Positions 39,001 to 45,000 of a DNA stretch of 45,436 bases are shown here, piece by piece; position 1 is the stretch's first letter, and each line of letters starts with the position of its first letter. The stretch lies in the IMG/VR virus record IMGVR_UViG_641736226_000030; one strand, written 5' to 3'. The stretch is from a virus (taxonomy: Duplodnaviria > Heunggongvirae > Uroviricota > Caudoviricetes). The position numbers are program-made.

Positions 39001-42000
39001 TTACAGGGTCATCCTGCAATACAAAAAATACACAATATTTAGAAAACTAATAGTGCCATGTGCAATTTTTAAGATTTTGTTATTAATTGTGGTCGCACCT
39101 TCCTTTCTGTGTACTTTCCGTATAGCTCACAGGATTCTGGGTACAAAAAAACCCGCGCATCAGCGGGTTAAGCAGCGTGGCAATGTAACCACTCTTATCA
39201 TGATATGCAGATTTTTACGATCGTAAACTATTTTTTCGCTGATAAAATACAGAGGTTCTCCCTCCCGGCAATTCACGCTCAACATACCGATCCATCTCAA
39301 GCCTCACTCCCAGCATCATCAGCATGCCTTCAACAATCCCCTCCGCTTTGTGAAGGCGTTTACCTATACAGGTGTCAGAGCACCCATGTTTCCGTGCCAG
39401 CGCCATGAACGTCTCCCCCAACACGTAATAATCAACCAGCAAGTCATGCAGATCGCGATTGTTCCGGTAAAGGCGGGCTATACACCCGCATATCACCATC
39501 GCATCATCGTCACAGCACTGCGGGCGTGATTTTACTTTTTCGGGGATCAGTCCCTTAAATCCGGCGGCAATGGGTGACCAGGTCACATCCTCATGGTTAT
39601 TTGCCGCCCATGCCCCCCAGCACTCAAGAACCTGCCGGATATCACGCATCAGTATCTTTACCCCATCCGCGATGAACCATAAGAACACCGTTGACAATAG
39701 CGTGTCTTTTTCCTTCTTTATCGCCAGTGTATTTTCTGACCGTGTTGCGACTACAGTTCAGTATTCTGGCTACCTCGGTCTGATTTTCATATGCCTCAAC
39801 GAGCATGTCAGGAATGGTTTTTACTGTGAACGTCATGCGGCCTCACTTCTGCTGTTTCGCAGGTCTTTAAGTTTCTGCTGATACTTCGCCTTGATCGCCC
39901 TGCATTCTTCGACAGTCCAGCGATGGCGGTTATGGTTCGATTCGATTTCGTCTACTGCTTCCTGCCCGATGCGGTTAATCAGTTCGACGCGATACGGAAC
40001 GAGATTTCCGCTTTTGTACTGGTTACACACCACGCATTGCTTGTGGATATTGCGTTCATCAAATCTGAGTTGGGGAGCCGCAGCTGTTGTACGGTAATGA
40101 CCTGCATCCCACTGAGCAGAATCGAATGTCCCGCATGAAACGCACGGCAAATTACGGTCTCGTTCTCTGATATAAGCATTCACGGCCTGCTGTGCCTGCT
40201 TAATCCAGTAACTGCGGGGCTGTAAGTCCCTTCTTCGCGCTTTAAGTTTGTCTGCCTGTTCTTTTGCAAAGGCTATGGCCTTTTCTTTTCTGACCAGTTC
40301 AAGTGCGCACTGACCGCAACAAACTTTCTGATACGAGCGAAACGGCACAAACGGGGTTCCGCACACTTTGCATTTTTTAGGTTTACGTTGCTGCATCATC
40401 ACCTCAGAAAAACGACAGCAGGCGGTTATTCAGTTCAGGGCTGTTTGAGCGCCCAAACACATGCTTTAACGCGGCATTAATCATTGAGTTGTAGCAACGT
40501 TCAAACTCATCCTGATCCATATTCGCGTAACTCAGGCTTTTTGCCCGATATCTCACCTCGCCTCTTATGGTTGTGACCACATCATAAAACCCGGCAAGAA
40601 TTGTCAGATTTTTACGAAACTCATCAAACTGCGTCGCTTCATCAGAGAATTCGTATCCGGCATGTTCAGCGCACCAGTACTGAAAGCAGAAATTAAGAAA
40701 AGCGAACATCTTCCGGTGAAAAGATGGGTTACGGGTAAGTTTTGCTTCCAGTGTATACAGCTCACCGTTTTTAAATTTTGCCAGTCGGGGTAAATCGCGC
40801 TCATACGCCGGTACAAATACGCCATTAGCCGCCTTGATCATCTCTATTTCCATCAGGCAGCCTCCGCTTTGAATTTGCGCGTCAACACATGTTCACGGGC
40901 TTCACACCCCTGAATGAGCATGTCGTTAAAATCCGGCAAGTCAGGCCAGCGAATGCTGACTTTCTCAACGTCATTGCAACTCATGAGATTCTTATGCCCA
41001 CATTTAAAGGCAGCCGCCAGACCTGCGCCGTGCGCATCATTGTCAGCAAAGATAATCAGGTGATTAACGCCAGGTGGCGCAATGAACTTCTCCATAAAAC
41101 CGGAGTTCATTGTTGACCACACATTGCAGCGGAAGATTTGACGGCATGAAAGCGCCGTTTCGATACCCTCGGCTATCCCCAGAGTGGACGACACCGGATA
41201 CAGGCGTATTGCCACCGATTTAGCATGCTGCAAACCAGGCAACTCCTGTAGCGCAGTCATTTTTTTAGCCGCCTCTACATTCGCCTTGCGATCACCATCC
41301 AGCAACGTACGATGCAGATAGCAAAGAGAACCTTTGTCATCTGTTGCAATGGCGTAAATTGCCTGATATTCGCGCCCGCTGGCGATCTGACGGTCACAGA
41401 AACGCACGGATTCGATCGGTAACTGGAGTATTCCCCTCCCCTGCAGGTACGCCTCACCTGTTGTGCCCCGCAGACACGGGAGTCCGGCAAACTTATCCAT
41501 GACCAGCTTCCGCTTTCTGCTTATCTCTGTTACAGGCTGGCTGACTTTCTCCCTCTTCCAGGTATTTCCGATCAGCCGATCGATTTCATCACACAACGTC
41601 ACCCAGGGCTTACCCGTGGCAAGTTGCAACAGATTCATCCCGTCCCCGTGACCACAGACACAAATCCATGAACCGGAACCATCCTTATCATCACAGCGAA
41701 ATTTACCTCTGGCACCACATATCGGGCAGGGGCCGCTATAATGTTTCAAGCCAGTAACAGGAGGCATGCCGTAATATTCAAAAATTCGCCCCCAATGCCC
41801 GGCCGCTGCCTTCTTAGTCTGCATGCTGGCCTCCTGTCATGGCTTTCTTGCGCCCTTTGGCATAGGCAATGGTCTTTGACTTGATGAAGTTGTACACTTC
41901 AACTGAGGTTTGCAGCGGCGCATTACTGAAGCCTTTAGGCCACACACCGAACTTCTCCTTGTAGGTATGAGCGCACCATCCGTCACTCAGGGGTTTACCC

Positions 42001-45000
42001 GTCGCGTTGCGGTAATTCTGATACCCCTTGATCTCACTCCACCAACGCTGCTTTTCCTCGCGACTGTATTCGCGTTTCCCTTTGTTTACGCGAGAGAGTT
42101 TTCGATCGCGGTCTGTTGCCACATCATCGCCACCAAGAGGACGAAACCCACATTTGGGACACATGTGTACACCAGCAGGCTTCATGAAGTGGCATTTGGG
42201 GCATTCTCTGGGAAGTTTCTCAGCCTTAACCTCGCCACCGCCAGCAGACGCTTTCATTCCGTCATTTTTACCCGGCAGTTCGTCATACTCGATATCCTCG
42301 GGGAAGCCCAGCCGATGAACCGTACCAGAATGGTCAAAAATCAACGCACGTTTTTTACCTGGGGCTGTACGTAACGCTCTACCTATGCACTGCAACCAAC
42401 GGATTTCTGATTTTGTCGGACGGGCGTAGATCAGGCAGCGAACATCGCTGTCAAATCCCGCAACCAGTACACCAACGTTGACAATTATTTTGGTCGCGCC
42501 CTCTTCAAAACGGCGAATGATGTCCTGTCGTTCATCATGGAGGGTATCTGCCGTCATCACCTCTGCACCAATACCGGCCTGTAAAAACTCACGGGTAACA
42601 AAATTCGCATGCGCAACATTCACGCAGAAGCAGATCGTCGGCAAATCCTCGCCATTCTCAAGCCAGTTGCGAACGATATCGCCAACCAGATCCGAACTCC
42701 CCATGATGGATGCGAGCTGCTCCTCGTTGTAATCCCGTCCAAATACGGTGTTACTGGTTTTTACGCCAGCCAGATCAGGCATTGAGGGGGCAAAAAACTC
42801 GTAATCGCTCAGATCACCACGCTGAATAAGTTCACGAATCGTTGTAGGCTTGAGCAGGCATTCGTAGTACTTCCCCATCCAGGCTGCGAACGGGGTGCCG
42901 GAAAGTCCAAGAACCCTGATGTCTCTGTCCCGGATAACCTCAAGTAACGCACGACGCTTCATGTGTGCTTCATCGATGATCAGCAGATCGATGTTGTCAG
43001 GAAACTCACGACGGATCAGCGTGTCGGCACTGGCAATCTGAATCAGTCGTGACGGGTCATAGTTAGGGTGATCACGCCATACAAAACTGATTTCTTCCCA
43101 CGGCAAACCGTATTCGGTGAAACGTTCCGCTGTCTGGTTCAGCAGGATGGTGTACGGACAGACAAACATCACCCGCATACCACGTTCAACCATTCCGGCA
43201 GTGACGAATGCTGCAAGACCAGTTTTGCCAGAGCCAGTGGGTGCATACATCAGGTACGTGCGATGCTGTTTCCACTGGTGCCGCAGCTGGTTTAAACCGC
43301 GCTCCTGAGCAAAGTTTGGGGTGATTTTCAGCATGACGCCCCCTTGCCATTCGCCGGGATGATATCGATCCCAGCATCGCTATAACTGGTCAGTTTCTTT
43401 GGCATTCGAAGCAACACAAAGCCTTCAGTGCCACGACGTGCCAATTCACGCAATTTCATGACTGAGCGGGGTCGCGGAGAGCTACGATCGATCTCGATAG
43501 CCACACTCCCACCAGTTTTTGCTGTTGCGAGAATATCAACACGGAAATTTCTGCCATCGATTCTTACTGTGACATTGCTTGCCACATGCATCCCCTGTGA
43601 CTCAAGGATCGTTACGACATCAGCCAGAAAGCTGTAACGCTCCTCTGTTCTCAGTGGTACAGTGCTCAGTGTACGGATCAGTGCCGATTTGGTTGCTGCT
43701 GACATAGTTTATCACTCAATAGTTAGCTCGATAATTATTTCACCAGGAACTATCGCGCGCTTATACAGTGATCTACCTAACCTATGTACCTGCCTTCTGG
43801 CCTAGGCCAAGGGATACAGGCCTTACCAACGACTCCACCCCCTTACCCCCTCCTCGCTTCCTTTCAGGAAATTAGTTGCATGTGAAATTATTTCTAGCGC
43901 AACTAACCGCCATCATGGTGTCGGGGGAAACTTCCGTACCGCTACTGGCGAAAGCATCCAGCCACGGCTGGCTCTCGCGTACTTCTGGACATACACCCGT
44001 AACCGGGTGTTGGCGCTCCGTCTTGCCCTGTTGCCCTTCCTGAACGATACAGGCTCCTTGTCCCACTCTTCCTGGTACACTCTCGCGTACTCTGCTGCAA
44101 TTTTTACCCGGGTGGTCGGGTCTAGCTGTAACAATTGCTCCTGTATCCAGTCCCGATCAGCATCACAGTACTGCTCGGGCATAACCGTTTTGATTTGCCT
44201 GTTCACTCACACCTCCGATGGGCTGTGTGTCCAGGATTAATCATCGCCTCTTACGAACGCAGGGAACGGACGAACCTCTTCCGCCTCAACTGTGCCGTCA
44301 TCAAAGGTTTTGACGTATATTTCTCGTCCGACGAGAAGCGCTTTACTGATTGCACTCTGCGCCACGCCAAAGTCCTTAGCGGCTTTCTTTTGGCCGAACC
44401 TGTATACGTAATCAGCCAGGGTCTCTTTTTTCATCGCCATAACTGACTCCTTCAAAATGCCCATATCATTACGCACAGTTATTAAAATGTCAACACCGCA
44501 GATATTTCATTACATATAACCAAAGGTGATATGGTATGAACATGAAAAAGAAACCGTTAACCCCTGAGCAACTGGAAGACGCCAAGCGTCTGAAAAGTAT
44601 TTTTAACGCTAAAAAGAAAGAGTTAGGCCTGTCGCAGGAATCATTAGCCTATGAATTAGGTGTTACCCAAAGCGCTGTTAATCAGCTAATGGCTGGCATC
44701 AACGCCATAAATGCCAGCCACGCAGCACAGCTTGCTAAGATACTGAATGTAAAGGTCGGAGATTTCAGTCCCAGCCTGGCAAAATCTATTGCAGAAATGG
44801 CGCTCGCAATTGAAGAGCCATTAACTCGTGTCCCCGCTTACGAATATCCGTTACTCTCCTGCGTACAAGCTGGCGCATTCTCAATGGATGATATTTCGTA
44901 CACCGCAAAAGATGCGATTAAATGGATCTCCACCACCACAAAAGCCAGTGACAGGTCGTTCTGGCTGGAGGTCAAGGGGCATTCAATGACCGCACCGCAG

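Follow-up and report, generated by a model that had tools for sequence, protein, structure and literature searches.

The Eru1 replication unit of an Stx2a prophage: a constant 97-aa partner gene and a conserved spacer as a candidate origin

The analysed stretch of DNA (the window; 45,436 nt, IMG/VR record IMGVR_UViG_641736226_000030, Caudoviricetes) carries the Shiga toxin gene stx2A at 37472-38431 and is an Stx2a prophage. The present work deals with its early region at 40853-44206, and mainly with a gene for a protein of 97 amino acids (aa) and a conserved non-coding spacer of 207 bp. The operon is read from the minus strand in the order cro, 97-aa gene (43913-44206), spacer (43706-43912), 125-aa gene (43328-43705), superfamily 2 (SF2) helicase gene (41814-43334), primase gene (40853-41824), nin genes and Q, and a check of the open reading frames (ORFs) in the window returned all the minus-strand ORFs of the early region at the coordinates of the initial annotation. 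The sole sigma-70-like site found by a consensus scan of 43300-44600 was the sequence TTGACA-17-AATGAT at 44493-44465 (minus strand), which points into cro and the replication genes and, judged by its position, would be pR. On the sense strand of the spacer, 43706-43912, the promoter and terminator scan detected nothing. As pR was the only predicted promoter there, the genes seem to be transcribed together as a single rightward operon. The spacer had been suggested to contain an origin or a promoter; an origin is plausible from the sequence comparisons given below, whereas a promoter was not supported, the scan having resulted in pR alone.

The region is almost certainly the Eru1 non-lambdoid replication unit of a Stx2a-converting Oslovirus prophage. 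The sequence 40853-44206 was 100% identical to those of PA2, VT2phi_272, ArgO145, Stx2a_F765 and others, and 98 phage records matched it with at least 95% identity. Eru1 (EHEC phage replication unit 1, where EHEC stands for enterohaemorrhagic Escherichia coli) was named by Llarena et al. 2021 with TL-2011c as the type phage, and consists of eru1A, a 506-aa SF2 DEAH helicase, eru1B, a 323-aa Toprim protein, and eru1C, a 149-aa DUF1367 protein, the phages being without O, P, N, CII and CIII (PMC8044961). For membership, the three genes have to exceed 80% in both nucleotide identity and coverage in comparison with TL-2011c (PMC8044961). The corresponding identities in the window were 95.8% over 1520 of 1521 nt (eru1A), 98.1% over 948 of 972 nt (eru1B) and 98.4% over 450 of 450 nt (eru1C), which with coverages above 97% assigns the region to Eru1. 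The same genes in the same order and with 96-100% nucleotide identity are present in TL-2011c and in the O104:H4 2011 phage (PMC8044961, PMC8951638). The window shares with the Eru1 phages also the carriage of Stx2a and the short-tailed Sepvirinae backbone, and at the sequence level nothing sets it apart from the published Eru1. The mosaic of lambda-like genes around a helicase-primase module is, hence, already published and not new. Eru1 has been linked to the O103:H25 2006 (Norwegian) and O104:H4 2011 (European) outbreak strains and to unstable lysogeny, and the spontaneous virion output of Eru1 phages was reported to be far above that of the lambdoid 933W (PMC8044961). Neither of the two Eru papers (Llarena 2021, PMC8044961; Fagerlund et al. 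2022, PMC8951638) discusses the 97-aa gene, the 125-aa gene or the origin. Our literature search on the origin of Eru1 or TL-2011c and on the function of eru1A gave nothing beyond these two descriptive papers, and no paper describing an origin or an initiator of the module was found.

The replacement of the O/P genes by a helicase and a primase, as proposed in the initial annotation, was confirmed by the Pfam domains of both proteins. No replication-O or P family of Pfam was matched by the ORFs between cro and ninG, and no O/P-type gene is annotated in bases 1-50000 of PA2, which is 100% identical over 40853-44206; the remaining 13.6 kb of PA2 lie in the tail-gene part of the genome. The eru1A product (506 aa, minus strand) matched ResIII with 57 bits, Helicase_C with 44 bits and DEAD with 40 bits, all above the cut-offs, and its GSGKT (Walker A) and LLIIDEAH motifs place it among the SF2 helicases. 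A CxxC...CxxC zinc ribbon lies C-terminal to the core. The closest solved structure was that of E. coli RadD (E = 1.2e-16), and RadD (YejH) was the best match of the core in NCBIfam as well; in both proteins, a zinc-binding element comes after the SF2 core. In contrast to RadD, which is an SF2 DNA repair helicase, eru1A has a different C-terminal domain and lies in a phage replication context beside a primase. With the NCBIfam RadD model (NF053632) the score was 89.2 bits (E = 1.9e-25), far under the equivalog cut-off of 720, so that the identification of eru1A as a RadD orthologue was rejected and only the cores are regarded as related. Weak similarity to XPB/Rad25, UvsW, RecG and PriA was also observed. 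The eru1B product (323 aa, minus strand) matched Zn_Ribbon_Prim with 55 bits (cut-off 23), Toprim_3 with 42 bits (cut-off 27.2), DUF7146, and PHROG 510, DNA primase. By these domains it is a zinc-ribbon/TOPRIM (DnaG-type) primase, for which primer synthesis is predicted; no solved relative was found by sequence. In two Kosakonia prophages (L006 8247-9217, L007 6618-8247) the primase was split into 232 and 80 aa, and in one of them the helicase was split into 267 and 248 aa; these modules are probably decaying.

The 97-aa gene starts with GTG after a GGAGG sequence. Both small ORFs had been listed as unrecognised in the initial annotation, and their coordinates were confirmed. The 97-aa protein could be placed in no family of Pfam or NCBIfam, and PHROG 852, to which it belongs, has no assigned function. 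Its AlphaFold2 (AF2) model is a three-helix bundle with a predicted local distance difference test (pLDDT) score of 75 and gave no informative fold match. Read from the sequence, the N-terminal half is acidic and the C-terminal helix very basic, with 12 Arg/Lys in 38 residues. Homologues with 42-80% identity were found in Salmonella, Serratia, Yersinia, Kosakonia, Atlantibacter, Citrobacter, Enterobacter, Erwinia, Pectobacterium, Gilliamella and others, and the invariant residues of the family are grouped at W20-I21 and N59..R62..A65-N-T-R-L-R70.

The linkage of this gene with the helicase was determined from both directions. Starting from the helicase in IMG/VR (80 loci kept of 324 confirmed), the 97-aa gene was upstream in 72 of the 72 loci with enough upstream DNA. 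Starting from the 97-aa gene, with one genome per species, the helicase was downstream in 29 of 30 loci, followed by the primase where the locus was long enough. The exception is a Citrobacter contig (L018, homologue at 1065-1355), in which unrelated DNA comes next and the 4 kb downstream matched neither helicase nor primase; this prophage may have been rearranged. In five contexts, each of another genus, the order was 97-aa gene, spacer of 190-330 bp, optional ORF, helicase and primase, with the neighbouring cro being of the lambda Cro, YdaS/HTH_3 or P22_Cro type. These data suggest that the 97-aa gene is likely a component of the replication module. Its place had been described as the cII position, which is right as a position and does not imply a cII analogue, since the gene goes together with the replication genes and not with the immunity genes.

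The third published member behaved otherwise. The eru1C gene (40404-40853, minus strand, 149 aa; Pfam DUF1367, PHROG 319 NinB/Orf recombination mediator) was next after the primase in no more than 12 of the 104 related loci, these 12 being of the E. coli/Salmonella lineage, and looks like a part of the nin region rather than a member of the replication unit. Published Eru1 counts eru1C as a member, for which the present comparative data give no support. Because the linkage of the other elements is strict, the conserved unit is taken to have four parts, namely 97-aa gene, spacer, helicase and primase, with eru1C not counted among them. On the ground of sequence comparisons, the 97-aa partner, the conserved spacer as an origin candidate and the redefined unit would be the additions to what has been published on Eru1. 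The 97-aa gene is unannotated in the RefSeq record of TL-2011c (NC_019442; L241 1014-1544). In the record of phi349 (PV189405; L001 6561-6830), where genes were called by PHANOTATE and the labels are PHROG-based, it is named 'CII transcriptional activator', a label which is not backed by profile and fold comparisons.

The spacer (minus strand) was compared in alignments of 20-29 spacers from different genera. The spacers were alignable across Enterobacterales although the proteins of the loci are only 45-65% identical, and shared on the sense strand a layout of one or more palindromes, G5-6 TAA G5-6, CCTTTTCCAACAG...CATAGGTTARGTAGATC, and a copy of the palindrome. In the window, the layout begins with the imperfect palindrome TTAGTTGCGCTAGAAATAATTTCACATGCAACTAA (TTAGTTGC..GCAACTAA; inverted repeat I5) at 43872-43906. 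The palindrome is lineage-specific and occurs in one to two copies before the G-run, having the form TGTACTAG..CTAGTACA in most lineages; in one spacer (L011) the palindrome GGAACAGTTTGTTCC was present in four copies. The G-rich purine run GCGAGGAGGGGGTAAGGGGGTGGAG follows at 43833-43857 on the sense, non-template strand. Its usual form is GGGGAAGAGGGAAAGGGGGGTAAGGGGGG, the version of the window being GAGGAGGGGGTAAGGGGGTGGAG (43855-43833). The G-rich run reported in the initial annotation, gggggtaagggggtgg, maps to 43850-43835 on the minus strand, and it and the 207-bp stretch were present as described. The run is the highest G4Hunter peak of the 45.4-kb window (2.0). Since a pair of G5/C5 runs arose in 118 of 300 shuffles of the window, the run is unremarkable within the window alone, and its significance derives from its conservation at the same position in the relatives.

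Downstream of the G-run lies the nearly invariant core CATAGGTTAGGTAGATC (43770-43786), which contains GATC. The exact 17-mer CATAGGTTARGTAGATC had 119 matches in the 2.9 million viral contigs of IMG/VR. All the 80 matches listed were placed between the 97-aa gene and the helicase, with both neighbours visible in 69 and the match at a locus end in 11, and none of these 80 lay elsewhere. A second copy of the half-palindrome, TAGTTCCTGGTGAAATAATT (direct repeat D1, inverted repeat I3), is located downstream of the core at 43733-43752, and the relatives too carry their palindrome on both flanks of the spacer. No convincing match to a DnaA box, an IHF site or a LexA box was seen by eye in the spacer of the window. 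In the relatives without a gene in the slot before the helicase, a TTCTTCCTGGAAGAG hairpin and then a T-run stand just 5' of the ribosome-binding site of the helicase. A structured cis-regulatory RNA in the spacer was considered and found no support: a permissive Rfam search of the spacer and a gathering-threshold search of the window gave nothing in it, RNAalifold with 20 spacers found no shared structure (8 pairs, -3.6 kcal/mol), and the fold of the single sequence had a z-score of -0.71.

The DNA separating the 97-aa gene from the helicase, represented by 102 distinct gaps, was sorted by content. Fifty gaps contained no ORF, and the G-run was present in 49 of them. A homologue of the 125-aa ORF was found in 25 gaps (G-run in 23), an HNH/NUMOD4 homing endonuclease in six (G-run in five) and other genes in three (G-run in all three), whereas among the 18 gaps with a RepL/HTH_36-like winged-helix ORF only two had the G-run. 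Gaps lacking the RepL-like gene thus had the G-run in 80 of 84 cases, those containing this gene in 2 of 18. The RepL match (PF05732) was 27.7 bits with a cut-off of 20.3, and the spacers of this type contain two palindromic iterons bracketed by AATCAATAGGTTA, which by our own reading is a perfect IHF consensus. The G-run element and the RepL-like cassette are mutually exclusive at one position, and the latter looks like a classical initiator with its iterons. The main argument for the origin is drawn from this: as the two cassettes exclude each other and one of them has an initiator-like gene and iterons, the position of the gap may specify the origin, and the G-run element would then be the origin of the Eru1 lineage. 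The RepL/HTH_36-like gene stood about 300 nt after the 97-aa gene in L051, L057, L065, L100 and L104, and was found also in L002 (7367-8159); besides the iterons, a conserved block, GGTTTGCACAAGG..AAGGTCAACGGCGGATCGAGTC, precedes the gene. The HNH/NUMOD4 (I-HmuI-like) genes, found in prophages of Yersinia and others (L003 7618-8274, L004 7777-8274, L012, L035 and L040), are inserted after the spacer and ahead of the helicase, a slot in which nuclease genes seem to settle preferentially.

In the window the slot is occupied by the 125-aa ORF (minus strand), which has a 7-nt overlap with the start of the helicase. No Pfam or NCBIfam family was assigned to the protein, and its PHROG, 1347, is without assigned function. 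A word-indexed homologue search reached only the E. coli copies and an exhaustive HMMER search was needed, which resulted in 28 relatives. In their alignment E71, D73, R78, S81 and K84 are invariant and D57 nearly so. The family gave weak matches to MTES_1575 (12 of 23 members), Mrr_cat (6), Hjc and NucS, and the family profile matched AF1548. For Mrr_cat and MTES_1575 the Pfam gathering threshold was not reached, the protein of the window scoring 14.5 bits against a cut-off of 38.2 and the best E-values in the family being 3e-5 to 4e-6. The AF2 model was confident (pLDDT 92.8), and the top Foldseek matches, with probability 1.00, were all PD-(D/E)xK proteins: the Bax1 nuclease domain, AF1548, NucS/EndoMS and VRR_NUC; the model superimposes on the R2 endonuclease too. 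The Foldseek scores were marginal (E about 5e-4, template modelling (TM) score about 0.5) and generic for the fold. As modelled, the protein is a minimal member of the PD-(D/E)xK restriction-endonuclease-fold superfamily. Its sporadic occurrence and the slot shared with homing endonucleases speak for an accessory or selfish passenger rather than a core replication factor. The model superimposes on the nuclease domains of the XPB-Bax1 pair and of minimal PD-(D/E)xK proteins (AF1548, Mrr_cat, MTES_1575), and the coupling of the gene to an SF2 helicase with weak XPB/Rad25 similarity recalls the former; the differences are the marginal scores, the single domain, the optional presence and that no family threshold was reached.

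The explanation which accounts best for these results, and which we consider probable on balance, is an Eru1 unit with a conserved module of 97-aa gene, spacer, helicase and primase, with the 125-aa gene as an optional passenger and the spacer as the origin. The last part stands lower: on conservation, position and analogy, the chances that the spacer is the replication origin appear evenly balanced. The features behind the candidate are its conservation, the palindromic repeats, the G-run, GATC and the positional equivalence with the RepL-like cassette with its iterons and IHF sites. After the loss of the repressor, transcription from pR would run through the spacer, where G5-TAA-G5 on the non-template strand of the transcript could favour strand opening via an R-loop or a G-quadruplex. 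The flanking palindromes would be bound by some protein of the module, opening or remodelling of the spacer would fall to the RadD-like, zinc-ribbon-bearing SF2 helicase, and the Zn-ribbon/TOPRIM primase would make the first primers. The basic helical 97-aa protein might serve as an adaptor or specificity factor rather than as a lysogeny regulator of the CII type. The R-loop/G-quadruplex mechanism at the spacer is possible but doubtful, and equally tentative is the complete proposal, according to which the spacer is an undescribed type of temperate-phage origin, fired by a pR R-loop or G-quadruplex, opened by the helicase and primed by the primase, with the 97-aa protein as a new family of initiators or adaptors.

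Several points weigh against these assignments. No helicase of SF2 is known to act as the replicative helicase of bacteria, and the model does not account for the loading of host DnaB. The G-run is weakest in the E. coli/Salmonella lineage, with G4Hunter values of 2.0 and 1.7 compared with 2.3-2.7 elsewhere. A 7-mer common to both flanks occurred in 55 of 62 spacers, while the chance rate of such sharing is high, about 50% by our own estimate, and the palindrome argument is therefore qualitative. The relatives examined were all from Enterobacterales with helicases at least 61% identical, so that this limited evolutionary depth may in part account for how strictly the 97-aa gene is linked. The 97-aa gene also accompanies the RepL-type cassette and is, consequently, not specific to the G-run element; as it is found with both cassette types, a contact of its product with the constant proteins is more likely than one with the G-run.

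Different functions for the two small genes were weighed. The 97-aa gene could be a functional analogue of lambda cII, an activator in the lysis-lysogeny decision that merely lies beside replication genes. It sits right after cro, its product has the same length as lambda CII, the phi349 record names it accordingly, and in lambdoid phages cII is also kept across immunity types. In the loci examined, the 97-aa gene never occurred with another replication module and the helicase never without the 97-aa gene. Homology with CII was ruled out: hhalign gave a probability of 0.2% for the family against lambda CII (with the CII sequence entered by hand), no CII or helix-turn-helix (HTH) family of Pfam was matched in 33 members, and no HTH was seen in the AF2 model. 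The repeat TTGC-N6-TTGC of the CII PRE/PI type is missing in the window, though the protein might recognise another site. Eru1 phages were also reported as unstable lysogens without CII and CIII (PMC8044961). Taken together, a cII analogue is distinctly unlikely, and the profile searches of both small ORFs matched no CII or loader family, in line with the initial annotation. It is very improbable that the 125-aa protein is an essential initiator which nicks the spacer for rolling-circle or nick-primed replication. Such a role would fit the PD-(D/E)xK fold, in which acidic and basic residues are conserved, the coupling of its translation to that of the helicase through the 7-nt overlap, and the top structural match to Bax1, a nuclease that works with the SF2 helicase XPB. 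The gene is present in just 25 of 102 gaps, with 50 slots empty and others holding an HNH homing endonuclease; as most gaps lack it, the protein cannot be required by the module, and the structural scores are marginal and fold-generic.

For the spacer itself, a role at the RNA level is the most serious competitor, though an unlikely one: the spacer would be a regulatory leader of the helicase operon, acting as attenuator, as RNA G-quadruplex or in the manner of a nut site, with the arginine-rich 97-aa protein as an antiterminator or translational regulator. The spacer lies within the pR transcript directly 5' of the helicase gene, the TTCTTCCTGGAAGAG hairpin with its T-run precedes the helicase ribosome-binding site in the relatives without a slot gene, Eru1 phages are without a homologue of lambda N (PMC8044961), and the 97-aa protein has the 12 Arg/Lys mentioned above in its C-terminal helix. 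The conservation, however, is at the level of the primary sequence, GATC included, and neither the consensus fold of 8 pairs (-3.6 kcal/mol), the z-score of -0.71 nor the Rfam searches indicated a conserved RNA. In the window, the hairpin and T-run are missing and their place is taken by the 125-aa gene, and other lineages have a gene similar to DNA replication initiators and iterons at the same position. Recent shared ancestry without function could make the spacers alike, as all the loci come from one bacterial order and the module is homologous. At 45-65% aa identity of the flanking proteins neutral DNA would be unalignable, and G6-TAA-G6 and the 17-mer are nearly invariant while the rest of the spacer varies, which makes mere ancestry an extremely remote explanation.

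The candidate origin was compared with known systems. As in lambda ori/O/P, it occupies the same place in the pR operon, after cro and the gene in the cII position, and is a cis element of the transcribed early-right region with palindromic repeats beside a tract which would be easily opened. In contrast to lambda, no O/P homologue is present, and the candidate is intergenic, whereas the origin of lambda is inside the initiator gene. The tract is G-rich here, while lambda has four iterons and an AT-rich region, and the module has its own primase and SF2 helicase, while lambda hijacks DnaB through P. The G-rich R-loop, transcription-primed origins (ColE1 RNA II and conserved sequence block II (CSB II) of mitochondria) and the SF2 origin or fork helicases (PriA and UL9 of herpes simplex virus (HSV)) serve only as a lead. 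The similarity to ColE1 RNA II and CSB II lies in a non-template G-run of a strong transcript just 5' of replication genes, and that to PriA and HSV UL9 in an SF2 helicase with zinc-binding motifs. The module differs from ColE1 and CSB II by encoding a primase, which those systems do not need for the leading strand, and the R-loop is here only proposed.

The output of toxin tracks phage replication, and the EHEC strains that harbour Eru1-type Stx2a phages are highly virulent. The 97-aa protein, the 207-bp spacer and the two short invariant motifs provide testable candidates, and a correction of the published unit is suggested, with the 97-aa gene included and the NinB-like eru1C excluded. If true, a new origin type would bear on the unstable lysogeny reported for Eru1 Stx phages, the O104:H4 type included.

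The neighbouring genes were in agreement with the initial annotation, which had described the repressor, Cro, NinG and NinH as lambda-like; the former two were confirmed by matches to lambda structures and the latter two by Pfam. The cI repressor (Eru1r; 44536-45249, plus strand, 237 aa, Pfam HTH_3 and Peptidase_S24) is of the lambda type, aligned over its full length with lambda repressor 3bdn (E = 4.8e-92), and was 100% identical at the nucleotide level to TL-2011c gp27. The cro gene (44237-44440, minus strand, 67 aa from ATG) matched Pfam Cro (E = 4.8e-34) and lambda Cro 5cro (E = 5e-16), with 100% identity to TL-2011c gp28. The mechanically called cro ORF extends to a GTG at 44476 (79 aa, the extra part being 44441-44476); the start is the ATG at 44440 in related records and by the lambda Cro match. 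Downstream of eru1C, NinG (39833-40402; Pfam NinG) and NinH (39642-39836; Pfam Phage_NinH) are followed by the antiterminator Q (39215-39649 as annotated in the relatives PA2 and TL-2011c; Pfam Phage_antitermQ), all on the minus strand.

In PA2 (L240 18133-20552), past the right end of the window, DNA methyltransferase and restriction endonuclease genes adjoin cI. This pair occupies the place of rexAB and N of lambda, and the annotation lists no homologue of N. Upstream of stx2A lie three tRNA genes (Arg-tct, Arg-tcg and Met/Ile-cat) with a 50-aa ORF beside them, at 38522-38773 and 38814-38966 (minus strand). The ORF bears the label 'DNA methyltransferase' in related records and is probably a gene fragment, because the coding sequence in those records is no longer than about 100-150 nt. 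The small RNAs AsxR (36857-36909, plus strand) and STnc100 (36911-37116, minus strand) were found directly downstream of the stx2 genes. An ALIL pseudoknot (Rfam RF01497, 121 bits) was detected at 16722-16838 on the plus strand; as this element is the frameshift signal of IS3-family transposases, an insertion sequence (IS) element is indicated in the late or structural part of the prophage.

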